This document shows, piece by piece, positions 4,471 through 20,037 of a stretch of DNA of 47,826 nt. Each line of letters begins with the position of its first letter. Position 1 is the first letter of the stretch. This stretch comes from Magnetococcales bacterium. Its GTDB lineage: Bacteria > Pseudomonadota > Magnetococcia > Magnetococcales > Magnetaquicoccaceae. A model generated the notes under the pieces. It did not search any database and was not told the DNA's origin. It saw nothing but the letters and a program-made list of their open reading frames with translations. The stretch is taken from assembly GCA_015232705.1 (NCBI GenBank), contig JADFZD010000001.1, positions 1 to 47,826 of the forward strand, given 5' to 3'. The position numbers and the translations under genes are program-made.

Positions 4471-6057
4471 TCATCGAGGATTCCGCCTCCGTCGGCTCAA
4501 GAACTGATGATACAACTCCGAAACCCCGGACTCCCGTCCGACGGACTCCACCACCTGCCGCGCCCGGTCGCCATCAAACTCTTCGATCACCTGTGCCACG
4601 ATCTGCTGGTTGTTGCGTGCCAACCGCTCCAGCAAAGCCTCAGCCGAACGGGCGAAACTCGACGACATGCGCTCGTTGAAACCCTCCACCGCGGAAACCA
4701 GGGCCTCCACCGTCTCGCGATTGGCCCGTGTCGCGCCTTCGCTGGCCTGCCGTGTCTCGCGGGCCAATTCGCTCAACCCCTCCAATCCCTCGGATTGGCG
4801 TTCCAGCGCCCGGGCGGCCATCTCCATGCGATCCACGATCCGCATCCACGACTCCTGCTCGCCGCGTGACACCATGGCCGATGATTCGACGGAGCGTACC
4901 AACAACGGCTGGATCTCGCGAGCCAGGTGCAGCGCCAGTTCCCGTACCACATGACGACCCTCTTCGCGCAACGATTCGATCAGCGGACGCCAAGCGTTCG
5001 GGTCCGGTGCGATCAGCGTGGTGGCAGTTCCCTGCACGGGGAGGGACTCCTCCGGGGCAGTCAGCATCGGGCTGGAGGTGGAAGGATCCGGCAGGCGAGC
5101 GCGGATGAGATCGCGAAGTTTGTCGTTCTCTTCGCGCAAGGTGGTGACCACCGGCTCCAGGGAGAGCGAGATCTGGGGAACTGCTGGTGGCGCGTGCGGG
5201 GATTCCGGCAGGCGAGCGCGGATAAGATCGCGGAGTTTGTCGTTCTCCTCGCGCAAGGTGGCGATCACCGGCTCCAGGGAGAGCGAAGTGGATGGGTGAC
5301 GTGCCCCTTCTGATTTGGCGGATAGCGGGCGATGAGCGTTCTCTTGTCCCAGTTGTTGCATGGCGCGCAGTTGGGCATGCAGCAGTTGTTCACGGGTAAC
5401 GGACGGAAAGCGCTGCACCAGTTGTTCGCACAAGTGCCCCAGTTCCTTTTCCAGGCGTTCATGCCATGCCCGGGTGCGCCAGGAGACGATCCAGGCGGTG
5501 AAGAGACCTGAAATGGAGGCGAGGAACTTGAACGCAGCCAGACCGAGCATGGCGCGCACCGCCTGTTGTGCGGAGGCGGCATCGCCGGGCACGAGTCCTG
5601 TGGCAGCCACCTGCAATGCGCCGAGGAGTCCGATGAAGGTGAACAGCACACCGGCTCCGATCAGGTGGAGCGGCAGAATGCGCAAGCGTTCGGCGTGTGG
5701 GTTTGATTTTGAGAGAGCGGCCAGTTCGAAATGGGTGTTGGGGTGCGCAGTGCGCAGGATGGAGGTATTGGGGGCATCGTGATCGATCAGGGTGACCACG
5801 AAATTTTGCCAAGCCGCTCCCAGTCTGGGCAGGTGTTCCATGCCGGCATGCAGGCGTCGGAAATGTGGGGCAAATGATTCCGGGGAGTCCGGGGTTTCGT
5901 CACACAGTTGACGTGCGGTGTGGATCTCCTGGCGCAGGGGATCCAGCCAGGCGTCGCGGGTGAACCACCAGGCAGCCATGGCCCATATGGGCAGCAGGTC
6001 TGCGGCGATCCAGGGAAGCGCAGGGTGGTTGAGCAGTTGAATCAGCCAGTCAAACAT
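4471..6057 (-). CDS. ZorA-like / MotA-TolQ-ExbB-fold membrane protein with long helical tail (528 aa)
   Basis: Three TM segments including LIGAGVLFTFIGLLGAL and AFKFLASISGLFTAWI, then a long predicted helical tail. Start placed at ATG 6057 because the longer track ORF reads through repeat C. Confidence 0.7.
   Translation of the reverse strand: MFDWLIQLLNHPALPWIAADLLPIWAMAAWWFTRDAWLDPLRQEIHTARQLCDETPDSPESFAPHFRRLHAGMEHLPRLGAAWQNFVVTLIDHDAPNTSILRTAHPNTHFELAALSKSNPHAERLRILPLHLIGAGVLFTFIGLLGALQVAATGLVPGDAASAQQAVRAMLGLAAFKFLASISGLFTAWIVSWRTRAWHERLEKELGHLCEQLVQRFPSVTREQLLHAQLRAMQQLGQENAHRPLSAKSEGARHPSTSLSLEPVIATLREENDKLRDLIRARLPESPHAPPAVPQISLSLEPVVTTLREENDKLRDLIRARLPDPSTSSPMLTAPEESLPVQGTATTLIAPDPNAWRPLIESLREEGRHVVRELALHLAREIQPLLVRSVESSAMVSRGEQESWMRIVDRMEMAARALERQSEGLEGLSELARETRQASEGATRANRETVEALVSAVEGFNERMSSSFARSAEALLERLARNNQQIVAQVIEEFDGDRARQVVESVGRESGVSELYHQFLSRRRRNPR
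5087..5286 (-). repeat. In-frame intragenic duplication (117-bp period)
   Basis: SLSLEPV(I/V)(A/T)TLREENDKLRDLIRARLP encoded twice. Confidence 0.9.
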
Positions 6058-6080
6058 GATGCGTATCGATACAAAGGTGA

Positions 6081-6378
6081 CAACTGTTGCAGGGGGCCGG
6101 GAACCGAAGGTCCCCGGCAGAGGTCCGGAGGCAGAGCCTCCGAGGTTTTCTCTTTGCTTTTGATGTTTTATCTTTACGGTGTGTCTTTGAATGTGCCTTT
6201 GGCGCGCTGCTATACAAAAAAAGCGATTTTCACGTGTTTTGTGAAAATCGCTTGCGCGCAGCCTTGGCTGCGGGATCGCTTTGCGATGTGTGCAAAATGA
6301 TCCCGCGAATTTGGCCAGAGTAACAGGCCGCCAGAGGCGGCAAACTGCCGCGAGCAATTCGCCATGGGTCGTTGCCGA
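6081..6378 (+). repeat. Repeat family C, long copy
   Basis: caactgttgc...ccggcagaggtccggaggcagagcctccgaggtttt...caggccgcc...ctgccgc...tcgttgc, colinear with 43730-43960. Confidence 0.8.
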
Positions 6379-6466
6379 TTGGTTGGATGGGGGGGAGACC
6401 CTTCTCATACCCCCCCGCCAACAGGAATCCGGAATCAGGCCGCACCCGCAAAAAACCGAACCTACC

Positions 6467-7336
6467 CTATCCATCCACACTGTGCCATCTGCGAAACGCC
6501 TCGATCACCACCGCCTTTACCTGGGCATGATAGTGACCGTAACGGTCGCGCAACGATCCCACCTGGCCGGTGTCATCCGTGGCTGTGGTCAGACTCTGGG
6601 CATTGGGCAGGGCGTTCTCGAAAACCGGTATGCCCAGTCGATCCGCCAAAACATGTACCTGCCCGATGTTGCGATGATACTGCTGACCGCGCTTGTCCAC
6701 ACGGTTGAGCAGCAGACCCAGACAGGTCGGTCGCATCCCGCCACCCCGTTCACGGGCATAATGGATCATCTCCAGAGTGTCCGGCAACGCTTCCAGCGAA
6801 AACCGCGATACCTCGACTGGCACGATCACCGAGTCGCTCATGATCAGGCCATTCACTGCCAACAGATTGCGCACGTCGATGTTGCCAGGCAGATCCATCA
6901 AAACAATGTCGCAACAGGTGGCCAGAAAAGGGCGCAGCTTCTCCCGAAACGTGGTCAGACGATGCAAGGGATTGACCTCGAAGGCAAATCCACTCGCCTT
7001 GTCCGAAACCATCACCGCCACCTCACCGATCGCCGTGGCACGTCCCTTGACCAGACCAGCCGCACGCCGATGCAGATAGGAACCGATATCCACTTTTTGT
7101 CCGGCATCCAGTCGCCGTGCCAGATCTCCGACAGTCAGACCACTCTGTCGCGCCGCTTCCAGACCCTCGCGTCCCAACATCGCCACCCCACAGGATCCCT
7201 GGGGGTCCAGATCGAGCACCACAACCCGCAACGATCGTTCACGAATCACCAGCGAGGCAAGAAAATCGGCCATGAATACCGTCAAGGTCGATTTTCCCAC
7301 GCCCCCTTTGTTGTTGTAGATGGTGATCGCGTACAT
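6467..7336 (-). CDS. ParA/Soj-family ATPase
   Basis: Deviant Walker A KGGVGKST, DLDPQG, Walker B LMDLP; no parB nearby. Confidence 0.9.
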   Translation of the reverse strand: MYAITIYNNKGGVGKSTLTVFMADFLASLVIRERSLRVVVLDLDPQGSCGVAMLGREGLEAARQSGLTVGDLARRLDAGQKVDIGSYLHRRAAGLVKGRATAIGEVAVMVSDKASGFAFEVNPLHRLTTFREKLRPFLATCCDIVLMDLPGNIDVRNLLAVNGLIMSDSVIVPVEVSRFSLEALPDTLEMIHYARERGGGMRPTCLGLLLNRVDKRGQQYHRNIGQVHVLADRLGIPVFENALPNAQSLTTATDDTGQVGSLRDRYGHYHAQVKAVVIEAFRRWHSVDG

Positions 7337-7439: not shown

Positions 7440-7631
7440 ATGAGCCGTGAAATCCAGGCACTGCAAGACAAAGTGAACTTTCTGCGCCAGACCCCGCACG
7501 TTTACGACATCGTTTCCACCCATTGCGGTGTCAAGGATCTGACGAATCTCAAAGGGATCAGCCCCGGCGCCCTGCAACGGGTGCAGCGCTACGTGGATTA
7601 CTACTACGGCATCTTTGCCTATCCCTATTGA
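7440..7631 (+). CDS. Small hypothetical protein (63 aa)
   Basis: AAGGAG RBS; MSREIQALQDKVNFLRQ...VQRYVDYYYGIFAYPY; divergent from parA. Confidence 0.65.
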   Translation: MSREIQALQDKVNFLRQTPHVYDIVSTHCGVKDLTNLKGISPGALQRVQRYVDYYYGIFAYPY

Positions 7632-8185: not shown

Positions 8186-8920
8186 TTACCACGGCATGAA
8201 TCGGTTGATGAAGCTCATGGGACGTGAAGCGCTGTTCATGTCGTAACTCATCACGTTCATCGCGCCGGTCATGGCATGCACCGCCTGTCCCATGGAGGCG
8301 ACATTCTGACTGATCGGTGAGAGGACGTTCATTTTCTGGTTGATTTCGGTCATGCTCTTGTCCATGTTCTTGATGCTGCCATTGAGCGAGGACACGTTCT
8401 GGTTCATGCTGGCGACATTGGTGTTCATGCCGTTGACCGATTCCGTGATGTTCTCCATGTTCTCGGACATGTTTTGCAGATCCACGGACATGGTTTCCAT
8501 ATTGTCGCTGATATACTCCAGATGGGTGGACATCAGTTCGATGTTGTTGGAGAGCATGGCAATGTGGTTGGAAAGACTTCCCATGTTCACGCCCATCTTC
8601 GGGTCGATGGAGGAGGCCATGGTGCGAATATCCTGGGTAAGGCTGTAGATCAGAAAAAAGCCATACATTGCCAGGATGATGAAGGCAAACAGCGATGGAT
8701 AGACGATCAGCTCCCAACGACGGGCACTCTTGTCGAAACTCTTGGCAAACTCCGACAGGATCATGGCCGAACATTCGCCACACTCCCGGTAGCGCCCGGC
8801 GGGGACGATCGGCATATTCGGCGGCATGGATCTGATTTTGGGGGCAGCTTTCTGACCGTCCATGTTGTCCGGGCTGGTGGGATCCTGGGGAGGCTCCCGC
8901 GGTGGTGCGGTGTCCGACAT
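8186..8920 (-). CDS. Single-TM protein with long Met/Ser/Asn heptad coiled coil; putative ParA partner
   Basis: N-terminal Pro-rich region with CGEC, TM RRWELIVYPSLFAFIILAMYGFFLIYSL, heptads such as MSENMENITESVNGMNTNVASMNQNV, end RPMSFINRFMPW; starts 3 bp after the parA stop. Confidence 0.85.
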   Translation of the reverse strand: MSDTAPPREPPQDPTSPDNMDGQKAAPKIRSMPPNMPIVPAGRYRECGECSAMILSEFAKSFDKSARRWELIVYPSLFAFIILAMYGFFLIYSLTQDIRTMASSIDPKMGVNMGSLSNHIAMLSNNIELMSTHLEYISDNMETMSVDLQNMSENMENITESVNGMNTNVASMNQNVSSLNGSIKNMDKSMTEINQKMNVLSPISQNVASMGQAVHAMTGAMNVMSYDMNSASRPMSFINRFMPW

Positions 8921-8923
8921 GGA

Positions 8924-9607
8924 TCAGGCTCCTTTCTTGGATGTGCGCGTCACCGGTGGTTTCCCGGATGAGACCAGTTCAGGGTAGAGCGGTTCCATCA
9001 GATTCAGAAATTCCTGGGTGGCCTTGCCGCTGGGCGACAGTTCGAATACCGCCCGGCCCTCGCTGAACGAACGACGATAGGCGGTACGCTGGGCAATGCG
9101 GGTTTTCAGAATCGTCACCCCCGGCAATGTCGCCAGGGCAGCTTCGGTCTCGTCCGACTCCCGCAGCATGGGATGTGTATCGGCTCGGTTGATGAAAAGA
9201 TAAATATCCGGTCGCCTGTCACGGTTTGTGGCGGTCTCCTTGATGATCTCCAGAAAGCGCGCCGTGGACCAGACATCCGCCTGACTGGGTGGAACCGGGG
9301 AGAGGATGCGATCCGCCTGGGCGATCGCCTGACGCATGGCCCAAAGGTTCGATGCGCCGACATCCACCAACACCTCGCCCTGATGATGGGCCATGATGCG
9401 CACCGGATCGCTTTCGGAACGATAGACCTTGATTTCGGGCGTGACCCCCTCTTCGCGGCGTACCTCGATGGCATCGCTCAAAGTGGCCTGCGGGTCGAGA
9501 TCGAAGGTGATCACGTCCTTGCCAAGTCGCGCCAGCCAGACCGCCAGATTGAAGGTGATCGTGCTCTTGCCACAGCCGCCTTTCAGGTTGCCAACGACGG
9601 TGATCAT
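8924..9607 (-). CDS. Short ParA/MinD-family ATPase
   Basis: MITVVGNLKGGCGKST, DLDPQAT, LVDVG, PVPPSQADVW; 227 aa with no N-terminal HTH. Confidence 0.92.
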   Translation of the reverse strand: MITVVGNLKGGCGKSTITFNLAVWLARLGKDVITFDLDPQATLSDAIEVRREEGVTPEIKVYRSESDPVRIMAHHQGEVLVDVGASNLWAMRQAIAQADRILSPVPPSQADVWSTARFLEIIKETATNRDRRPDIYLFINRADTHPMLRESDETEAALATLPGVTILKTRIAQRTAYRRSFSEGRAVFELSPSGKATQEFLNLMEPLYPELVSSGKPPVTRTSKKGA

Positions 9608-9918: not shown

Positions 9919-9946
9919 AAAAAAAAGGGCGGCCCAAGGGCCGCCC
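9919..9946 (-). terminator. Intrinsic terminator after the sulfur globule genes
   Basis: Minus strand gggcggcccttgggccgccc followed by a T run. Confidence 0.8.
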
Positions 9947-9994: not shown

Positions 9995-10462
9995 TTACTT
10001 GGCAGCCGGAGCCGCTTCGGCGGGCGCAGCGGCGGGAGCCTGCGGAGCGCCCCAGGCACCCGGAGCACCACCCCAACCCGGAGCGCCACCCCAACCCGGA
10101 GCACCACCCCAACCCGGAGCGCCACCCCAACCCGGACCATAGCCGTATCCCGGATTCCAGCCGTTGTTCCAGCCGTTGTTCCAGCCGTTGTTCATGTTGT
10201 TGTTCCAACCGTTGTTCATATTGTTGTTTCCGCTTCCAGCAGCATCGCCGCTCATGTTGAAGCCGAAATTGCCACCGGCGCGTCCATTGCCGGAGCCGGA
10301 GCCGTTGTTGCCCCAGTTGTTGCCCCAGTTGTTGTTGCCCCAGCCATTGTTGTTGCCCCAACCCGGACCATTACCCCACCAAGCGGAAGCTTCCGGCGCC
10401 GTCAGCAGCGCGCTACCGCCAATCAGAACCGCCACTGCCAGCACCTTCATTCCAATCTTCAT
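9995..10462 (-). CDS. Sulfur globule protein, SgpA/SgpB-like
   Basis: Sec signal ending ASA then WWGNGPG; GNFGFNMSG core; GWGGAP repeats; Ala/Pro tail. Same layout as Allochromatium vinosum SgpA as I recall it (ASA-WWGGPG, FNMS, GYGAP repeats, AP tail). Confidence 0.8.
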   Translation of the reverse strand: MKIGMKVLAVAVLIGGSALLTAPEASAWWGNGPGWGNNNGWGNNNWGNNWGNNGSGSGNGRAGGNFGFNMSGDAAGSGNNNMNNGWNNNMNNGWNNGWNNGWNPGYGYGPGWGGAPGWGGAPGWGGAPGWGGAPGAWGAPQAPAAAPAEAAPAAK

Positions 10463-10524
10463 GATCATCTCCAATATAGTATGTGATTGAGAGGGCTAAT
10501 CCTACCTGAATCCACGCAAACCGT

Positions 10525-10965
10525 TTACCACCAGCCACCTGGTCCCCAGTTTCCGGGCCCGTTACCAGACCCCCAGTTACCGGGCCACCAGCCGCCTGGC
10601 CCACCGTTCCAGGGACCGCCCCCTTGAGGCCCCCAGCCGTTGTTCCATCCATTGTTCAGGCCGTTGTTCCAGCCGTTGTTCCAGCCGTTGTTCCACAAAT
10701 TATTCGCCCAACCATCCACATCCCCATCCAGGGTGATGGTCAGGTTGCCACGGGCGCGGCCATTGCCATTGCCACTGCCGTTGCCCCAGCCGTTGTTGCC
10801 CCAGTTGTTGCCCCAGCCGTTGTTGCCCCAGCCGTTGTTGCCCCAGCCGTTGTTGCCCCAGCCGTTGTCCCACGGACCCCACCAGGCAGAGGCCGTCTCG
10901 GGAATCGCCTGACCCAGCAAGGTCAGGAGTCCGGCCAAAGTCAAAATACGCGCCGATCTCTTCAT
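10525..10965 (-). CDS. Second sulfur globule protein-like paralogue
   Basis: Signal ending ASA then WWGPW; GWGNN and GWNN repeats; GNGRARGN shared with the neighbour's GNGRAGGN. Confidence 0.75.
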   Translation of the reverse strand: MKRSARILTLAGLLTLLGQAIPETASAWWGPWDNGWGNNGWGNNGWGNNGWGNNWGNNGWGNGSGNGNGRARGNLTITLDGDVDGWANNLWNNGWNNGWNNGLNNGWNNGWGPQGGGPWNGGPGGWWPGNWGSGNGPGNWGPGGWW

Positions 10966-11084: not shown

Positions 11085-11882
11085 TTACCACCAACTGCCG
11101 CGGCGATATCCATCACCCCACGGACGCTCGGAACGAGGCGGCGCTTGAGGTTCATCCTCGGGAAGACGATAGCCCCACCCCTGGCGCGGACGCTCATAGT
11201 AAGAGGGGTCATGCCAACGCCGCTCCACGCGTGGATCAACTGGCGGCTCGTAGGCATCCCAGGGGGAGAGTCCCGCTCCGTAGTAGCCGCGAGCACGATC
11301 CCAGTCCCGTGTGGCCGCCCAGCCTAAAGAGCCTGGATCGTTCAAGGGATTTCCGTATCCCGGATGGGGGGAGCGTCCATAATACGGATTTCCGCTTCCC
11401 CACATCTCCCATTCCGGATAGAGGCCACCTCGCTCAGTCGCGCCCCATGGATCGTACAGTGGCATGTAGCGATACACTTCTCGCGATTCACCTCGCCGAC
11501 CGGCGGCGTCGTAATCATTCCAGGAGTTCCGACGGTTGTCCGCCGGCACCGGCTCGCGCACGCGCCCATCCCCGCGCCAACCCTCACCGGTCTGCTCCTG
11601 CGGTGGTTTCATCTCCCGCATGAACGAACCCATAAATTTGCCCATGCGTTGACCCATCTCCACAGCGTCCCCCTGATCGGTGGCGCCTGCCATGGTGGGC
11701 ATGCCGGGCATGTTGGTCACGCCGGGCATGCCAGTCACGCCTGGCATGCCAGTCACGCCGGGCATGGAAGGCATGCCCTCGGCGATGGGGTTTCCGGCTT
11801 CCGCGTTCACCGCGCGACCCATCCAAAACAGTCCGATGGCCACGGCAAAAACTAAGTTTTGATAACGCAGAGAAATCCTCAT
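11085..11882 (-). CDS. Secreted low-complexity protein (MPGVTG repeats; Gly/Trp/Tyr/Arg-rich)
   Basis: Signal ending VNA; MPGVTG/MPGVTN repeats; MGQRMGKFMGSFMREM helix; YDPW, PWD motifs; ends WW. Confidence 0.75.
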   Translation of the reverse strand: MRISLRYQNLVFAVAIGLFWMGRAVNAEAGNPIAEGMPSMPGVTGMPGVTGMPGVTNMPGMPTMAGATDQGDAVEMGQRMGKFMGSFMREMKPPQEQTGEGWRGDGRVREPVPADNRRNSWNDYDAAGRRGESREVYRYMPLYDPWGATERGGLYPEWEMWGSGNPYYGRSPHPGYGNPLNDPGSLGWAATRDWDRARGYYGAGLSPWDAYEPPVDPRVERRWHDPSYYERPRQGWGYRLPEDEPQAPPRSERPWGDGYRRGSWW

Positions 11883-12110
11883 CGGTTCACCGCTGGATCC
11901 TGGGTTCGAATCTGGTGCGTCAGACAGGCGCTTATCGACCCATGATATCAATTTGTGCTGTTGTGAAACCAGGAAAGAAATCCCTCCGTGACCATTATTT
12001 GTATATGATAATTTTCTAATATACCCTTTCCGGTACGATTGCAAGGGAATTTTCATGGGCGGCTCATTTTTTTGACCAAAAAAGTCAGAATTAGGTTCCT
12101 GGATGCCATC

Positions 12111-12731
12111 TTATGGCGCTTGCTTTTGATAATCCTTGGGAATTTGAAACAGCTCCACAGGTTGAGGCCCCTCCTGGATGTTGGAAAGTTCGACTTGCAA
12201 ACCATCGGCATAGCGCTCACGGATGGCAATTCCCAATCGGGTATCGATCCAGAGATGGGCTTGGGGGATTTCGAGATGGTCTGGACCCCTCTGCGCGATC
12301 TCCCAGTGGATGGTTTGCCGACTATCGATTTTTTCGGTTCCAATCGCGCGACAGATGAGTGATTTATCGCGTCGGCAGGGGCTGTTCGGATCATCGGGCA
12401 AAAATGGGCGGGATGGGCTGATTCCTTTACGCTCTGAATATATCTTTTGATCTGGAGCAAGTATCCATGTGGTTTTTTCGATGGCGGGGTATATCATGAC
12501 GATCTGAATCCCATCCCGCAGGCTTTCACCGCGAACCCCATCTTTAGAAACAAACATTTTTCCGCGGCTATGGGGATTTTTTTTATCCGGACGGGAGCGC
12601 GTCACATCCGCGGAAAAGGGTATGGTGACCGATTCGGCCATCAGAGGGGGGGCAGAGAGGGTCAGCAGGAGGAGGATGCCGGTCCAGGAAAGAGAGGGTC
12701 GCTTCAGGGAGTGGTCGATGTTTCTGGACAT
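12111..12731 (-). CDS. DUF4412/LolA-like-fold periplasmic protein
   Basis: Signal peptide; FSAD, GKMFVS, G.E.I..R.T.HW, W.D..LG, NIQEGPQP..LF.IP.DY pattern; start uncertain. Confidence 0.7.
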   Translation of the reverse strand: MSRNIDHSLKRPSLSWTGILLLLTLSAPPLMAESVTIPFSADVTRSRPDKKNPHSRGKMFVSKDGVRGESLRDGIQIVMIYPAIEKTTWILAPDQKIYSERKGISPSRPFLPDDPNSPCRRDKSLICRAIGTEKIDSRQTIHWEIAQRGPDHLEIPQAHLWIDTRLGIAIRERYADGLQVELSNIQEGPQPVELFQIPKDYQKQAP

Positions 12732-13050
12732 TTTTGCGCGCTGGTACGAGGAAAGGTAGGTAACGTGCGTGCGGGGTGCGACCCCCCTTTCAGCCATGAA
12801 TCTCATGACGGGAGGTGCATCGGAATGGACTTTTTCGTAAGCGTTATCCCTCACCTCCACCATCCGTGGAACACCCGATGGGCGTCACAAAAAAAAGAGA
12901 TCTGTTGATCATGCCATTCATGGAAGCCCCAAACTTGCGACGTTCGCAGTCACTTCCAATTTGGCTGCCAGAGCGTTTTGCAATCCGGCTGGCATCCCTG
13001 ATCCGCATCGGCAGTTCGGAAAATGCCGGACTCTCTCCAAAAAGCTGAGA

Positions 13051-13785
13051 TCAGCGCTCCTCCGGCCAGTAGCGTCCGCCCGAAGATCCGCTGCCACGTC
13101 CCCACCAATTGCCTTCACTCCGAGGCCGCTCCTCTTCATAGCCGCCTGCGCGCGGATAGCGCTCCTCATATCCGCCACGCTCTCGGGAAGGATCCTCTCC
13201 CGAACGGTAGCCTCCGCGTCCATCGTTCCGTTGATAGGGTCCGTCCCAGCGGGAGTAACCCCCTCGATCCGGCGGATAATCGCGATATCCTAGGCGGTTC
13301 GGATCCTGATCCCGCCCATAACCGTCACCCCAGCGTTCACCCACAGGGGAGGAATAGCGCTCATCCAACTCATTCCGTTGGCCGGATCCGCCACCATGGG
13401 CATAACCGGGATCCTCCCATTGCGAGGGTACCCTTCCCCAAGGACGGCTTGAGCCGCGAGCCCCTTCGTTCCAGCCGCGACCCGGGCCGCGCATGGCACC
13501 GCTCATCGGTGGAGCCTCTTCCCTCCGCCCCTCGCGCCACGGTATGCTGCGATCATCCTCTTCGTAGTCGCGGCGCGGCTGGGCCGGACGGACCTTGAAC
13601 GGCGTTTTCTCCGGTTCGACCCGATAAAAGCCGGAATTCCATTGGGAATCCTCTTCGGCAGACGCCAACGGCGCCCAGCCGGTGATGATCCACAAAACCA
13701 GAACGATCGTCCGTTGCGTGCCACGTCGTGCAGCACCCAACCAGAACCAATCCATATGATGCATCGACGATTCCATCGGCCTCAT
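13051..13785 (-). CDS. Secreted Arg/Gly/Trp/Tyr-rich disordered protein
   Basis: ATGA overlap with the upstream stop; signal ending ASA; RPWG, RGGY repeats. Confidence 0.7.
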   Translation of the reverse strand: MRPMESSMHHMDWFWLGAARRGTQRTIVLVLWIITGWAPLASAEEDSQWNSGFYRVEPEKTPFKVRPAQPRRDYEEDDRSIPWREGRREEAPPMSGAMRGPGRGWNEGARGSSRPWGRVPSQWEDPGYAHGGGSGQRNELDERYSSPVGERWGDGYGRDQDPNRLGYRDYPPDRGGYSRWDGPYQRNDGRGGYRSGEDPSRERGGYEERYPRAGGYEEERPRSEGNWWGRGSGSSGGRYWPEER

Positions 13786-14501
13786 CTCCAGGGATTGCCG
13801 TCCTGACCATACCACTCACTGCCTGGATTCCAGCCCTCCCCAGAGGGCGATGGATCGGTCAGCGGACCTGCGGGGAGAGTCAAGACGCCTCGTGACGGAA
13901 TCTCCCCAGAGAGGTCCGGGGGTGGTTCCCTGCCAGGCCGACCAGGGGCTCCCAACACCGACGGCGATGGCGCGAACAGCGGATCCTCCCCGCTCATGAA
14001 TCCCTGCTCAATCCGCTCGATGGCGGGTTGGCTTGAAGGCCCATTCGTGCCAACGTCCGATGAACCCGCTTTGGAATTCGGCGCCTTTTCCGGCTTTCGT
14101 CCCCGTTCCGACACTCCCCCTTCCCCTGCGCGATCCATGGATCGCACACTCCCCTGGGGAGGCGGACGGCTCCCTTCATCCCGTTTCCCAGGTGGCAGAC
14201 GACGCTTCTCCTGCCCGACTTTCCCAGGGGGGGCGGGAGGTGGCGGCTGGGGAGCCTCCTCGAACTGCTGAAACGGACCATCCTCCATAAGATGCAGTGG
14301 TTTCTCACGCTCTGGAGCACCAGAGTCCCGAGGATTCCCCCACAATCGGATGCCACCATCGGATTCGGATGGGCCGAAAGCGCCCTCCTGATTGGGCAGA
14401 TGAACCGGTTTTTCTTCGCCAAACGCCCATACCTGACTTGCGAGCGTACAGCCGATCAGAAGCATCGTCACGACCAGACCGCTGCGCGCGCCACGACTCA
14501 T
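13782..14501 (-). CDS. Secreted Pro/Gly/Glu-rich disordered protein
   Basis: TGATG overlap with the RND stop; signal ending VWA; ends GNPWR. Confidence 0.7.
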   Translation of the reverse strand: MSRGARSGLVVTMLLIGCTLASQVWAFGEEKPVHLPNQEGAFGPSESDGGIRLWGNPRDSGAPEREKPLHLMEDGPFQQFEEAPQPPPPAPPGKVGQEKRRLPPGKRDEGSRPPPQGSVRSMDRAGEGGVSERGRKPEKAPNSKAGSSDVGTNGPSSQPAIERIEQGFMSGEDPLFAPSPSVLGAPGRPGREPPPDLSGEIPSRGVLTLPAGPLTDPSPSGEGWNPGSEWYGQDGNPWR

Positions 14502-17500
14502 CAAGCGTCCCCGCGCGACTCGTCCGTCTTACCGTGATCGCTTTTCAGGCGAATGCCACGCCGGACAATAGGCTTAGGCTTGGACTCCTCGCTGCCGGTT
14601 TCACCGGGCTCGATCCTGGATTCCGGAATGATTTCGCGTGGCGCGTTCACCTCTGGAACCGAGGTCTCGGTTCGCGTCTGAGTGGTGGTCGGTTGCGGGA
14701 TCGGTGCGGCACCCGTATCCGGCTCCAGCACCACGGGCGGCATCGGCGGCGGCGTTACCGGCTTCGGTCGGGCCTTGGGTTTGGACTTCTTGGGACGAAA
14801 GATCAGCCCACAGAAGAGTTGCCAGAGGGCGAGCAGAATTCCGGTCCTCGGCGTCTTGTTCACCTTGGCCTGCTTGGGTGCGGAAGAAGCGGGCAGATCG
14901 GCCTCGCAGACTCCGGCGCCACCGGCATGCGACGAAGGCATATGTTCCGGATGGACGAAAGCATGGCTGGCGCTCACGCAGCCCAACGGAATCACCAGCA
15001 GAGTCAGCAGGGTCGAGACCAGGGAACCGAACAGCAGAGAAATCGCCATGCCCTGGAAGATGAAATCCCCCAGGATCACGCTCGATCCGGCCACAAGCGC
15101 CAGAGCGGTGATGATGATGGGCCGGGTGCGTGCCTTGCACGAGAGAATCACCGCATCGCGCACGCTGGTGCCGCGCATGATCTCCTGTTGGGCGAAGTCC
15201 ACCAGCAGAATCGAGTTGCGCACGATGATCCCTGCCAGGGCAATGAAACCGATCATCGAGGTGGCGGTGAATTTGGCGTCCAGAAGCCAGTGCCCCGGCA
15301 GAATTCCCAACAGCGTCAACGGGATCGGCGCCATGATCACCGCCGGCAGCACGAAGTTGCCAAACTCCCACACCACCAACATGTAGATCAGGATCAAGGC
15401 CACGCCAAAGGCCAATCCCATGTCGCGGAAGGTTTCATAGGTGACCACCCATTCTCCGGTCCATTCAAAGGCCGATTGGGTGTAGCTCTTGGGCGGACCC
15501 ATCATCTCGCCGGTGATCTTCACGCCATCCGGCGCGGTGTAACTCTTGAGCATCGCCTCCACGTCCATCATGGCGTAGATCGGTGCATCCAAACGCCCTT
15601 CCACCTCGGCGGTCACATACTCGACCGGTCGCAGATCCTTGTGGAAGATGATCGGATCGTGCGCCTGCTTGACAAAACGACCCAACTCGCCCAACGGCAC
15701 GATTTTGCCCTGGGGGTTGATCAGGGGAAGATCGCTCACGCTCGAAATGTTGGAACGCACTCCCATCGGCACTTGCAACACGATATAGGTCGGTTCGAGC
15801 ACGCTGCCGCGCTTCACGTCACCCACCTGGGCGCCACCCATGGCCATGCCGAGGTTGCGGTTGATGGCCTCCACGGTGATGCCACGGCGGACCGCCTTTT
15901 CGGTGTCCACCTCGAACCGCCAGATGTCATAGGGTTCGCGCATGTAGGTATCGACATCCACCAGGGAGGGCGATTTCTTGAACATGGCCTCCATGTCACG
16001 CGCCAGTTTGTGACGGGTGTCGGCATCCGGACCGGTCACCTCCGCGACCACGGATTGCAGCACAGGCGGTCCGGGCGGCATCTCCACGATCTCGATGTTG
16101 GCACCGACCTCGCGCGCCATCGGCGTGAGCAGTTTCCGTGCGTCGACGGCGATGTCGTGGCTGGTACGCTTGCGTTTGCTCTTGTGCAGCAGCTGCACCT
16201 GGATGTCGGCGTGCCAGGCATCCTGACGGAGATAGTAATGCCGCACCATGCCGTTGAAGTTGAACGGCGAGGCTGAACCCACATAGGTTTGCAGCGCCGT
16301 GACCTCCGGGATCTGGGTTTTAAGCGCTTGGGTCATGCGCCTTGCCAGATTGGTGGTCTTGGGCATGGCCGTCCCTTCCGCCATGTTGATCACCACGTTG
16401 AACTCTGGCTTGTTGTCGAGCGGCAGGATCTTCACCGTGACATCCGTGGTGTAGAAAAGCAGCATCGACAAAAAAAACAGTCCGATGAGCAGCAGCAGGA
16501 AGCCATACCCCTTGACCTTGCTGTCCAGCAGGGCCGGGATGATCCAGCGAAAGAATCTTTCCAGACGTTCCGAGCTTTTAAGCTCACGGTCGGAGTGGTG
16601 ATGCAAGGAGCGCATGCTCGGTTTGATGAGCTGTGCCAGCCAGGGGGTGAAGATGAAGGCGGCAAGCAGCGAAAAGAGCATGGCTACCGAGCCCAAGGCC
16701 GGGATCGGCAGCATGTAGGGGCCCATCATGCCGCGCACGAAGCCCATGGGCAACAGGGCGGCGATCACGGTGAAGGTGGCGAGAATCGTCGGGTTGCCGA
16801 CCTCGCGCACCGCATCGATGGAGATCAGATGGCAGCATTTGTCCTCCAGCAGCCAGCGCCGGTAGATGTTTTCCACCACGACGATGGCGTCATCCACCAG
16901 GATGCCAATGGAGAAGATCAAGGCGAACAGACTCACGCGGTCGATGGTATAGCCCATGATGAGCGCCGCGAAGACGGTCATCAGGATCACCACCGGGATC
17001 ACGATCAGGGTGACGGTCGCCGGTTTGAAGCCGAGGGCGAACCATACGAGTACCGTGACCGCCATGGTGGCGACCAGCAGCTTGAAGAGCAGTTCGTTGA
17101 CCTTTTCGTTGGCGGTCTCGCCGTAGTTGCGAGTGACGGCGACGTTGACGTTCTTGGGGATCAGTCGCCCTTTGAGCTCCTCGATCTTGGCGAGCACGCC
17201 ATTGGCCACGGTGACGCCGTTGGCGCCCTTCTTCTTGGCGACCGCGACGGTCACCGCTGCCGCCTGGTTGGCCTTCGGGCCATTGGGATCAGCCGCCGGA
17301 CCGGTGGTGTAGGTTGCCATGCGTTGCGTCTCCTCCGGACCGGAGAAGACTTCAGCCACATCACGCACCCGGATCGGCTGGTCGCCGTGGGTGCCGATCA
17401 TCAGGCGGGCCACGTCGTGGGCGTTTTTCAGAAAGGCGCCGGAGTAGACCTGAAAGCCCAAGTCCGAGGATTCGACGCTGCCCAAACCCTTTTCGCTGTT

Positions 17501-18199
17501 GGCCGTGCGGATGGCCTGGGCGATCTGGTCGAGGGAAATGCCATAACCGCTGAGACGTTCAGGAGAGACTTCGACCCGGATCTGCTCCGGACGACCGCCG
17601 ACCACGAAGCTCTGGCTGGCGTTTTCCACTTCGTTGAGCTTTTGCAGAACGTCAAGAGCCAGAATGCGCAGCGAGGAGTCATCCACATCGTTGGACCAGA
17701 GGGTCAGGGTGACCACTGGCACGTCATCCACCGCCTTCGGCTTGACCAGAGGTTTGGTCACGTCCGGAGGGATCAGATCCATATGGGATTCGAGCTTGTC
17801 GTAGAGCTTGACCAGTGACGCCTCCATGTCCTGGCCCACGTCGAACTCGACGGTCACCATCGCCTGACCGCGCACCGAAGCGGAATAGACGTGTTTGACC
17901 CCTTTGATTTCGCTCATGATCCGTTCAAGAGGCTCGGCCACGAGGGTGGAGACCTGATCCGCCGAGGCACCGGTGTAGCGCACAAAAATGTCCACCATCG
18001 GCACCGAGATTTGGGGATCCTCCTGACGTGGCGTGAGGATCAGTCCCATGATGCCCATGGCCAGACAGGCAAAAAGCAGCAGTGGCGAGAGTGGCGAGTG
18101 GATGAAAGTCTTGGCCATCGAACCCGCCACCCCGAGATTGTGCGCAAGGGTGGTGGGAGTCGGGGGAGGGGGCAGCGAATCTTTGTGGGATGTCGTCAT
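14501..18199 (-). CDS. RND (AcrB/AcrD/AcrF family) transporter
   Basis: 12-TM RND layout; GILVDDAIVVVEN, GIIVRNSILLVDF, RTRPIIIT; Pro-rich C-terminal extension. Confidence 0.95.
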   Translation of the reverse strand: MTTSHKDSLPPPPTPTTLAHNLGVAGSMAKTFIHSPLSPLLLFACLAMGIMGLILTPRQEDPQISVPMVDIFVRYTGASADQVSTLVAEPLERIMSEIKGVKHVYSASVRGQAMVTVEFDVGQDMEASLVKLYDKLESHMDLIPPDVTKPLVKPKAVDDVPVVTLTLWSNDVDDSSLRILALDVLQKLNEVENASQSFVVGGRPEQIRVEVSPERLSGYGISLDQIAQAIRTANSEKGLGSVESSDLGFQVYSGAFLKNAHDVARLMIGTHGDQPIRVRDVAEVFSGPEETQRMATYTTGPAADPNGPKANQAAAVTVAVAKKKGANGVTVANGVLAKIEELKGRLIPKNVNVAVTRNYGETANEKVNELLFKLLVATMAVTVLVWFALGFKPATVTLIVIPVVILMTVFAALIMGYTIDRVSLFALIFSIGILVDDAIVVVENIYRRWLLEDKCCHLISIDAVREVGNPTILATFTVIAALLPMGFVRGMMGPYMLPIPALGSVAMLFSLLAAFIFTPWLAQLIKPSMRSLHHHSDRELKSSERLERFFRWIIPALLDSKVKGYGFLLLLIGLFFLSMLLFYTTDVTVKILPLDNKPEFNVVINMAEGTAMPKTTNLARRMTQALKTQIPEVTALQTYVGSASPFNFNGMVRHYYLRQDAWHADIQVQLLHKSKRKRTSHDIAVDARKLLTPMAREVGANIEIVEMPPGPPVLQSVVAEVTGPDADTRHKLARDMEAMFKKSPSLVDVDTYMREPYDIWRFEVDTEKAVRRGITVEAINRNLGMAMGGAQVGDVKRGSVLEPTYIVLQVPMGVRSNISSVSDLPLINPQGKIVPLGELGRFVKQAHDPIIFHKDLRPVEYVTAEVEGRLDAPIYAMMDVEAMLKSYTAPDGVKITGEMMGPPKSYTQSAFEWTGEWVVTYETFRDMGLAFGVALILIYMLVVWEFGNFVLPAVIMAPIPLTLLGILPGHWLLDAKFTATSMIGFIALAGIIVRNSILLVDFAQQEIMRGTSVRDAVILSCKARTRPIIITALALVAGSSVILGDFIFQGMAISLLFGSLVSTLLTLLVIPLGCVSASHAFVHPEHMPSSHAGGAGVCEADLPASSAPKQAKVNKTPRTGILLALWQLFCGLIFRPKKSKPKARPKPVTPPPMPPVVLEPDTGAAPIPQPTTTQTRTETSVPEVNAPREIIPESRIEPGETGSEESKPKPIVRRGIRLKSDHGKTDESRGDA

Positions 18200-18369: not shown

Positions 18370-19554
18370 TCAGTGCTGCTTCTCCATCTTTTTGCCAGCG
18401 GGATTGGTGGCAGAAGGGCTCCAGTCCGTAGCCATGCCGCTCGGTGGCGTGGAAAGAATCCGTTCGCCGACCGACAGACCCGACAGTACGCTGACCGATT
18501 TGTCGTCCACGAAACCGCCCAGACGGATCATGCGCAATTGGGGATCCTCCCCTTTCTGGTCCGGGGCGATCAGCACCGCCGGGAGACTGCCGCGCCAGAT
18601 GACTGCGGATTTGGGTACGATCGGCATGCTCTTCACCGGCGTGGTGACATCCGGAATCATGACCTCGGCGTACATGCCGGGACCGCCAGGGGAATCCTTG
18701 GGCAGATCGAGCTTGACGGTCACCGTATGCCGTTGGGCGTCGGCCATGGGATAGATCTGGGAGACCTTGGTTTCGACGCGAGCTTCGCCGACATCGAGTT
18801 TGGCCGGGATGATCATATCCTTCTGGATGCCTGGCATGAGCCGTGCCGGGATATCCACCTTGACCTGGAGATGACGGGTATCCGCAAAGGTCAGAAGGGG
18901 CATGCCGGGTTGTACGGTATTCCCCTTTTCGATGTGTTTGGCCACGATCACGCCGGAGAAGGGGGCGATCGACTTGGTATCGCGCAGCTTGGCTTCGAGT
19001 TCCTGCAATTTGGCCTGGGCCTGGGTACGGGCTGCGTAGGCTTGATCGATCTGCGAACCCTGATTGTAGATGCGGGCGCGACGGGTGAGTTCGGGGTTGT
19101 CGATGCCGATCATGCTGGACATGGGGCGTGTGACCATGTAGTCCCACATGCGCGGCATGGCCATGCCGGTATTGTCCGCGCCGCCGTAATCCGAGCCACT
19201 GTAGACCTGACGGGTATACTGCACGCGGGAATTCTTCCAGTTGACATCCGCGGATTCGAGTGACGCCTGAGCCGAGCGACGCATGGCCAGGAGATCATCG
19301 TTATCCAGGGCGACCAGGACGGTGCCACTTTTGAACCAGTCACCCTCGACACCGGCGATATATTCGACCCGACCGGGCATCTGCGCGGTGAAGGCGACCT
19401 CCTTGAAGGGGACCACGGTACCGCCCAACGTCGTGGTGGAACCAATCGAGCCGGCTTCGACCATAATGATGTTCCCATTGGCATGCGCCGATGGCGCGGC
19501 CAGGGTCACCATGAACGCGGCGAGAAGCGCGAGGTACGTTTTTTGGTTGGTCAT
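18370..19554 (-). CDS. RND periplasmic adaptor (membrane fusion protein)
   Basis: TAQMPGRVE..G.EGD, IAPFSGVI..K.IE.G..VQPGMPL, PGMYA; signal ending AHA; Met-rich insert inside the helical hairpin. Confidence 0.92.
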   Translation of the reverse strand: MTNQKTYLALLAAFMVTLAAPSAHANGNIIMVEAGSIGSTTTLGGTVVPFKEVAFTAQMPGRVEYIAGVEGDWFKSGTVLVALDNDDLLAMRRSAQASLESADVNWKNSRVQYTRQVYSGSDYGGADNTGMAMPRMWDYMVTRPMSSMIGIDNPELTRRARIYNQGSQIDQAYAARTQAQAKLQELEAKLRDTKSIAPFSGVIVAKHIEKGNTVQPGMPLLTFADTRHLQVKVDIPARLMPGIQKDMIIPAKLDVGEARVETKVSQIYPMADAQRHTVTVKLDLPKDSPGGPGMYAEVMIPDVTTPVKSMPIVPKSAVIWRGSLPAVLIAPDQKGEDPQLRMIRLGGFVDDKSVSVLSGLSVGERILSTPPSGMATDWSPSATNPAGKKMEKQH

Positions 19555-19641: not shown

Positions 19642-20037
19642 TTATACCCGTCCCATGACGGTGAACGACTTGATGAACGGGCCGGCCATGCGCGGATCCT
19701 TGATCATCGCGCCATAGTCGCCCACTTCGAACTTGAGCTTGCGGGTGGTATAGGCCATGCCCAGACCCATCATGCCCAGTCCTTTTTCGATCCACTTGTT
19801 CCAACTCTCTTCACTGGCGCGCAGATCCCAGTTCACATCCTCTCCGGCATAGGCGCCACTTTTGACGGCCTTGCCTTCCTCGATCACCAGCACCCCGCGC
19901 GGTGCATCCTCGCCATCGATGCCGTAGGCGATGGTCGAGTTGAAGCCGATTTTGGCCAAGGCATCGGCCAGATCCGGTTCGTTGTTCCATTCCGTCTGAA
20001 AGCGATTCATCCATTGCGCGGAAAACAGATCAGCCAT
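19642..20037 (-). CDS. SCP-2 sterol-carrier-fold protein
   Basis: LFSAQWM..F..EWN, WDLRA..E.W, LGMAYTTRKLKF..GDY..MIKDPRMAGPFIKSF; stand-alone bacterial SCP-2 type. Confidence 0.8.
   Translation of the reverse strand: MADLFSAQWMNRFQTEWNNEPDLADALAKIGFNSTIAYGIDGEDAPRGVLVIEEGKAVKSGAYAGEDVNWDLRASEESWNKWIEKGLGMMGLGMAYTTRKLKFEVGDYGAMIKDPRMAGPFIKSFTVMGRV

Follow-up and report, generated by a model that had tools for sequence, protein, structure and literature searches.

What does an orphan ParA ATPase carry when its gene stands beside genes for sulfur storage? The question is raised by a 47,826-nucleotide stretch of a Magnetococcales genome (assembly GCA_015232705.1, contig JADFZD010000001.1), here called the window, in which a short parA without parB lies 3 bp upstream of the gene for a single-pass membrane protein with Met-rich heptads (hereafter the zipper) on the same minus strand, beside two sgp-like genes. 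A sequence-only reading, whose starting observations agree with our ORF calls and profile scans, took the zipper for an adaptor between nucleoid-bound ParA and a periplasmic globule. In the following we argue that the broad positioning idea stands, that the zipper is probably not the adaptor, and that the tail of an RND pump encoded in the same cluster comes before the zipper as candidate ParA partner.

A conserved gene module

The parA and zipper genes are part of a larger module that is shared by Magnetococcales and by sulfur-oxidising Gammaproteobacteria and runs in the order 131-aa protein, MFP, RND pump, exported low-complexity proteins, DUF4412-like protein, sgp-like genes, parA and zipper. 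Its features in the window, from head to end, are as follows:

19642..20037, minus strand: conserved protein of 131 aa, first gene of the module, without a family match
18370..19554, minus strand: RND periplasmic adaptor (MFP), TIGR01730 at 145.9 bits, above the cut-off
14501..18199, minus strand: RND pump of 1232 aa, PF00873 over residues 28-1072, with a low-complexity C-terminal tail of 159 aa
14543..14563, minus strand: RRGIRLK close to the C-terminus of the RND tail, candidate binding peptide for ParA, tracks ParA
13051-13815 and 13782-14504, minus strand: two low-complexity, probably exported ORFs, poorly conserved outside the genus
12111..12863, minus strand: DUF4412/LolA-like, probably exported protein, weak PF14371 match (orthologue at 35.4 bits, above the cut-off)
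11085..12056, minus strand: low-complexity, probably exported protein, start uncertain, position conserved in Magnetococcales
10525..10965, minus strand: sulfur-globule-protein-like gene 2, aligns with PF17228-positive orthologues
9995..10474, minus strand: sulfur-globule-protein-like gene 1, signal-like N-terminus and G/N/W repeats, aligns with PF17228-positive orthologues
9927..9946, minus strand: terminator-like hairpin of 8 G-C pairs with a T run, separating parA from the sgp-like genes
8924..9607, minus strand: short ParF-like ParA ATPase of 227 aa, conserved core ending near residue 210
8186..8920, minus strand: single-pass Met-zipper membrane protein of 244 aa, likely an RND accessory, with relatives behind a sister RND

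The 131-aa protein may be SCP2-like, and the cluster of the DUF4412/LolA-like protein was found in 17 loci. Among 41 genomes of the order, 37 gave a strong zipper match and 34 a ParA, and all 34 parA copies directly precede the zipper gene; the window's own genome is 58% complete and holds dsrA. An AAGGAG lies inside the 3' end of parA, ahead of the zipper gene. Of 28 relatives, 23 have a hairpin with a T run no more than 450 bp ahead of parA (a raw count), and in one relative a hairpin falls between parA and the zipper gene. A promoter scan gave nothing above chance, no outer-membrane-channel gene was found on the window's contig, and a search of sequencing runs listed no RNA run and six DNA runs of small share.

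Gammaproteobacteria have the same module. TM-TPR and DUF302 genes often follow parA there and a dynamin-like gene stands at the end, which in Magnetococcales lies outside the module (5/5). Among the 47 best gammaproteobacterial zipper loci parA is adjacent in 2, and 27 of those genomes hold a parA of at least 50% identity. Beggiatoaceae, and some others, have parA at a place unlinked to the pump. The TM-TPR neighbour was considered as a universal ParA partner and rejected, being present in 31 of 52 gammaproteobacterial ParA genomes (E 1e-9) and in none of 18 near-complete Magnetococcales. The DUF302 and dynamin-like genes occur elsewhere in the window's genome (G000:C255:117-812 and G000:C335:1623-3260), the former next to what are presumably sulfur-oxidation genes.

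Several further genes surround the module. Downstream of the zipper gene lies a second, longer ParA-like ATPase of 289 aa (6467-7336, minus strand), which is found in this place in 7 of the 8 closest loci that extend so far, with one partial case besides (L013-L020); it was not found in more distant loci and stands outside the conserved module. Between it and the zipper gene, on the opposite strand, is a 63-aa ORF (7440-7631, plus strand) with no family match, 80-95% identical in L013-L021. The ORF at 4471-6480 (minus strand) begins with a membrane region that resembles ZorA (NF033914, E 3.8e-26, under the cut-off), and no zorB was noticed alongside. Just upstream of the module, from 21591 to about 33000, an integrated element comprises tRNA-Ser(CGA), then a phage-type integrase, a D5-like primase, a Toprim protein and an AAA_25 helicase.

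The ParA ATPase

The ATPase has the deviant Walker A with signature lysine and the Walker A' and B aspartates of the ParA/MinD family: K9 and K14 of KGGxGKS, together with D36, D38 and D82, are invariant in an alignment of 30 of 30 orthologues. Its model (pLDDT 89) has the ParA/MinD fold, with ParF, MipZ and Soj as top Foldseek matches, and ParF of plasmid TP228 is the closest solved relative in sequence and fold (profile E 7e-16; Foldseek 5u1g, TM 0.78/0.84); the match to NF041546 reaches 139.8 bits, under the cut-off of 180. Conservation stops at P209 and the orthologues end at 210-213 aa (30 rows), and the C-terminal extension of the window's protein is a low-confidence coil in the model. 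Neither the orthologue alignment nor the model contains a MinD-type C-terminal amphipathic membrane helix.

Non-specific DNA binding by this ParA is plausible, considering that all 30 orthologues have a basic residue at R170, R174, R178, R179 and K195. Of these, R174 aligns with ParF R169, known from ATPase mutants (PMC9178275). DNA binding is not assured, because the core is net acidic (pI 4.75-6.16 in nine rows, net charge -1 to -12).

A scan of 18 ORFs from 0.5 to 20 kb of the window gave no ParB-family match, and the sole parS match is on contig C345, beside a separate ParA; this parA therefore has neither of the two neighbours, parB and parS, that mark a ParABS system. The BMC shell gene PF00936 was found in none of five relatives whose genomes are 95-99% complete, with two controls giving matches, so that identity with a carboxysome McdA is unlikely. 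A homologue search that started from a Chromatiaceae ParA gave no studied strain among the best 120.

The zipper protein

The anatomy that the sequence-only reading had given the partner, namely a CGEC, one membrane helix, heptads and an amphipathic end, was found in full:

8771..8782, minus strand: CGEC (CxxC), zipper residues 47-50, typical of Magnetococcales members
8636..8710, minus strand: transmembrane helix, residues 71-95, the most conserved part of the protein
8225..8632, minus strand: Met/Ser/Asn heptad coiled coil, residues 97-232, predicted periplasmic
8189..8224, minus strand: conserved amphipathic end RPMSFINRFMPW, W near the C-terminus

The single hydrophobic helix, at about residues 71-95, is followed by 149 residues, and Met, Ser and Asn together account for 44%. 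Of 19 heptad repeats, 18 have a hydrophobic residue at one given position, matched by none of 10,000 shuffles. As one straight helix the coiled coil would measure about 19-20 nm, and the AlphaFold model (pTM 0.27) has two long helices, residues 50-105 and 109-228. The C-terminal RPMSFINRFMPW has a hydrophobic moment of 0.66. No Pfam or NCBIfam family passes its cut-off for the protein, and a PDB search with the zipper profile gave generic coiled coils only. Some homologues are labelled 'methyl-accepting chemotaxis protein' in databases; the MCP signalling domain (MCPsignal) is absent among the zipper's 23 Pfam matches, all of which are under the cut-off. Homologues number 1340 at E 1e-5 and form 559 clusters at 50% identity (E up to 1e-10). 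The best named one, at 94%, comes from a Magnetococcales strain, and the ESM Atlas holds three clusters of the family without function.

Family features were counted over 246 of 266 fetched proteins, those matching the anchor pattern. Lys and Arg are more frequent before the helix than after it in 95% of these 246, which favours an N-in, C-out orientation; the zipper thus probably spans the membrane with its C-terminus in the periplasm, as the sequence-only reading had supposed. A Trp occurs within the last five residues of 197 of 246 members, and 93-149 residues follow the helix (10th to 90th percentile). The N-terminus is 14-170 residues long with a median net charge of 0. The CxxC, present in 83 of 246, was ruled out as a family-wide feature. 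Over 30 paired loci the mean pairwise identity is 0.90 in the membrane helix, 0.73 in the juxtamembrane part and 0.42 in the coiled coil, the last 13 residues are 71% identical, and R68, on the predicted cytoplasmic side, is near-invariant. The identities of ParA and zipper correlate at 0.83, which is explained by shared descent and is not used as evidence here. Co-folding of a ParA dimer (ATP, Mg) with zipper residues 33-100 scored 0.00 in two runs and counts neither way.

The link to sulfur storage

The sequence-only reading had called the two genes upstream of parA sgp genes. The label is probable and depends on a same-position orthologue, which scores 64.9 bits on the Pfam SGP profile (PF17228) against a cut-off of 26.7 (L118:8753-9127), whereas the window's genes have no match themselves; the profile misses true relatives, these two among them. 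Four gammaproteobacterial members of the sgp-like cluster score 26-62 bits.

We made an even draw of 351 Gammaproteobacteria, five of them already known as zipper carriers, and found ParA in 52, the zipper in 62 of 350, SGP in 45 and dsrA in 108. The zipper is present in 49 of the 52 ParA genomes, in 29 at most 2.6 kb downstream and in 6 directly adjacent. With SGP and dsrA as proxies for globules, the pair is tied to sulfur storers, as had been expected, and is far from common elsewhere (1 of 238 sampled genomes that have neither gene). Among the dsrA genomes, ParA occurs in 37 of 40 with SGP versus 10 of 68 without, and 58 of the 108 have neither SGP nor this ParA. No SGP match was found in 11 of the 49 pair-holding genomes, and most sgp copies sit outside the module.

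Sulfur globules have been reported in magnetotactic cocci (10.64898/2025.12.17.695019). Their usual compartment is the periplasm, and their placement appears random in many species (PMC10386293); in Beggiatoaceae they usually lie in vesicles believed to arise from the cytoplasmic membrane (10.1101/2022.04.11.487978).

A motif in the RND tail tracks ParA

The C-terminal tail of the module's RND pump extends past the Pfam domain by 147-385 residues across 53 genomes. In AcrB-type topology this end of the protein is cytoplasmic. RRGIRLK or a close variant ends the tail in 30 of 33 module RND ORFs, and the three exceptions are exactly the three loci that have no parA.

The tail was read in 91 genomes with a module RND, of which the even draw supplied 63 and an earlier selection of zipper carriers 28. 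At the first ParA threshold, a loose form of the motif was present in 54 of 54 assessable ParA genomes versus 16 of 31 without ParA. All 32 ParA-negative genomes were then re-searched at lower stringency, and seven moved to 'ParA present': G106, which has a full-length divergent parA inside the module, and six with divergent, unlinked ParA of about 190-210 bits, one of them split. Unlinked matches of 75-130 bits in five other genomes were left uncounted. With these seven reclassified after the motif exceptions were known, all 60 assessable ParA genomes have the core [RK]GI[RKQ][LI] intact, versus 2 of 25 genomes without ParA, as raw counts over genomes that include kin and are not independent. 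Beyond the 60 (one read across a frameshift), 6 more were cut by contig ends. The 25 ParA-less genomes include 8 with substitutions unseen beside ParA, such as RQGIQL and RGVRL, and 15 without the motif; the intact motif stands without a ParA found in G073 and G291. In G028, 100% complete, the motif is likewise intact and no ParA was found, and the contig ends right after the sgp genes. The zipper occurs in 51 of 53 even-draw genomes with ParA versus 9 of 10 without, and thus does not discriminate ParA genomes.

In L133 (G322:C6), which has parA in the locus, an apparent frameshift puts the tail motif into a different reading frame. A divergent ParA clade, L241-L247 (G188, G368, G053, G065, G067, G217, G057), scores 190-210 bits, is unlinked from the module and has RRSLTEG in place of RRSFSEG, and the pump in those genomes mostly keeps the motif.

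Natural losses and a sister pump

Five genomes (G025, G221, G357, G246 and G095) have pump and zipper without parA and without an intact motif. In G025, of the same order and 96% complete, the pump, sgp genes and zipper gene stand in line with no parA between them, the motif is decayed, and the zipper retains CxxC and SARRW. Zippers in parA-less modules keep SARRW or a close variant, and the CGEC is kept in the parA-less module L236. The reverse is also seen: G097 and G418, each essentially one contig, keep parA and the motif and gave no zipper at E 1e-3, and the zipper was not found in G286, where parA is present. The claim that the coiled-coil partner is the ParA adaptor finds no support in these cases, in which the zipper is kept without parA or not found beside it, or in its direct adjacency in only 6 of 52 ParA genomes of the even draw.

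Distant homologues of the zipper were found behind another pump. In G034 (L120:3532-8023) the gene of a short-tailed sister RND stands between an outer-membrane-channel gene, on its upstream side, and two tandem genes for single-pass Met-heptad proteins, which match the zipper profile (HHalign 97.5% and 95.1%); weak zipper-like matches follow the sister pump in G025, G038, G028 and G368. Because such homologues follow the sister pump, zipper-type proteins travel with RND pumps, and the zipper is likely a membrane accessory of the pump. A role for it as TolC stand-in is disfavoured, as the sister module holds an outer-membrane-channel gene and two zipper homologues.

A pump-tail model and its alternatives

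Which protein, then, does ParA bind? We start from the joint loss of parA and motif, the persistence of the zipper without parA, the module order, and the co-occurrence with SGP and dsrA. Since ParA and the RRGIRLK motif are kept and lost together, ParA likely grips the RND pump. We propose that it binds the RND tail, spaces the pumps via the nucleoid and thereby places the globules, with the zipper as pump accessory; we give this proposal slightly under an even chance of being right. ParA-ATP dimers would bind DNA non-specifically, as ParF does with ATP (PMC5389482), and the flexible cytoplasmic tail would bridge membrane and nucleoid. The tail peptide may dock in the cleft of the ParA dimer as ParG, McdB and MinE peptides do; residues 15-23 of ParG dock there as a helix (PMC5393062), and 20 residues of McdB suffice (PMC12139897). 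ParA would in this way spread pump complexes over the inner membrane facing the nucleoid. The zipper may pack on the pump via its conserved helix and prop the periplasmic side, spanning about 14-22 nm of periplasm, and the pump may feed or build Sgp-coated deposits outside the cytoplasm, so that pump complexes would be the sites where coated sulfur deposits form. The complete picture, in which nucleoid-borne ParA grips the RND tail and spaces globule-building sites of pump, zipper strut and coat proteins, and so governs the spacing and inheritance of globules from across the inner membrane, is possible and on the whole doubtful. The evidence for the pump-tail model is comparative throughout. 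Against it stand the reclassification of seven genomes, the intact motif with no ParA found in G073, G291 and G028, the acidic ParA core, the seemingly random placement of globules in many species, the 58 dsrA genomes with neither SGP nor this ParA, the unlinked parA of Beggiatoaceae and some others, the direct succession of parA and zipper in every Magnetococcales copy, and the C-terminal place of RRGIRLK, whereas known partner peptides are N-terminal.

It is also conceivable, though unlikely, that ParA binds the tail as a pump switch or assembly factor and not as a nucleoid-based positioner. The same pattern of co-loss would be expected, the acidic core of ParA and the survival of modules after parA loss fit, and the ParA/MinD family includes the regulators FleN and BcsQ (PMC9178275). 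However, the closest structures are of DNA-binding ParF, the C-terminal basic residues of ParA are invariant, and a tether of 147-385 residues would suit nucleoid reach better than local regulation.

Alternatively, ParA may position the pump for the sake of another envelope structure, such as invaginations or lipid or metal export, the sgp link reflecting shared regulation. The terminator-like hairpin that splits sgp from parA, the pair-holding genomes without an SGP match, the sgp copies outside the module and the dynamin-like gene within it in many Gammaproteobacteria could all be read this way. We consider it rather unlikely, as both classes have sgp-like genes within the module, ParA follows SGP within the dsrA genomes, and the SGP profile misses true relatives.

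The adaptor role of the zipper, with its cytoplasmic N-terminus binding ParA and its periplasmic end gripping the globule coat, we now regard as quite improbable. It has the constant adjacency in Magnetococcales, where translational coupling is likely, the high co-occurrence in Gammaproteobacteria, the near-invariant R68, a C-terminal Trp that recalls McdB (PMC8359340), and the lack of the other neighbour, the TM-TPR protein, in near-complete Magnetococcales. Against it are the reciprocal losses described above, the SARRW retained without parA, an N-terminus of no fixed length and a median net charge of 0, a membrane helix more conserved than the cytoplasmic part, two arginines that fit the positive-inside rule, and the distant homologues behind the sister pump.

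It is very improbable that ParA stands here by chance and is in fact the McdA of carboxysomes, a partition protein of plasmid type or a positioner for chemotaxis, with a chemoreceptor as partner: McdAB is common in sulfur bacteria (PMC8359340) and some zipper homologues bear a chemotaxis name, but no shell gene was found in the five near-complete relatives, the zipper has no MCP signalling domain, no parB is nearby, a separate ParA accompanies parS on another contig, and the gene order is conserved across two classes.

Comparison with known systems

The pump-tail model gives the zipper a place next to a known arrangement. AcrB-AcrZ is an RND pump with a small, single-pass membrane accessory whose helix is highly conserved. 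In contrast to AcrZ, the zipper bears a periplasmic coiled coil of 90-150 residues, and the module's pump has a long tail.

For the ATPase, the nearest system is ParF-ParG of TP228, a short ParA with signature lysine that is the best match in sequence and fold and is activated by a short arginine peptide lying in the dimer cleft (PMC5393062). Here no ParG, parB or centromere was found, the genes are chromosomal, and the candidate peptide ends a membrane pump. McdA-McdB likewise pairs an orphan short ParA with inclusion genes, and a basic peptide tunes its ATPase (PMC12139897). Unlike that system, the present one has no carboxysome shell genes, its cargo would lie outside the cytoplasm, its two candidate partners sit in the membrane, and the motif is C-terminal. 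McdB is small and soluble with a charged N-terminus, whereas the zipper has a membrane helix and an N-terminus of neutral median charge; it ends in Trp like McdB (PMC8359340), but this end is predicted to be periplasmic. PpfA-TlpT and ParC are also orphan ParAs acting through a component of the cargo (PMC9178275); the module here is without chemotaxis genes and the zipper without an MCP domain.

With SgpA-D of Allochromatium vinosum (PF17228) the module shares exported, Gly/aromatic-rich coat-like proteins. SgpD has a possible coiled coil and its gene adjoins an exporter; as described, it has a cleavable signal peptide, which sets it apart from the uncleaved anchor of the zipper (PMC10386293). 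The sections of that paper drawn on here describe only coat proteins, with no ATPase or positioning for SgpA-D (PMC10386293). Likewise, papers containing both 'sulfur globule' and 'dynamin' gave, in the portions consulted, no link to this cluster. The literature searched describes neither the module nor the zipper nor the motif; subscription studies of the A. vinosum globule proteome or transcriptome may list the genes.

The module supplies named genes and a seven-residue peptide for work on globule placement. ParA/MinD partners act via short, basic, disordered N-terminal peptides (10.1101/2022.06.09.495121); if our model is true, a transporter's C-terminal tail as ParA partner would extend this rule, and cargo would be positioned across a membrane. 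The system would work like ParA cargo positioning and is not a member of McdAB; it is best filed as a variant.
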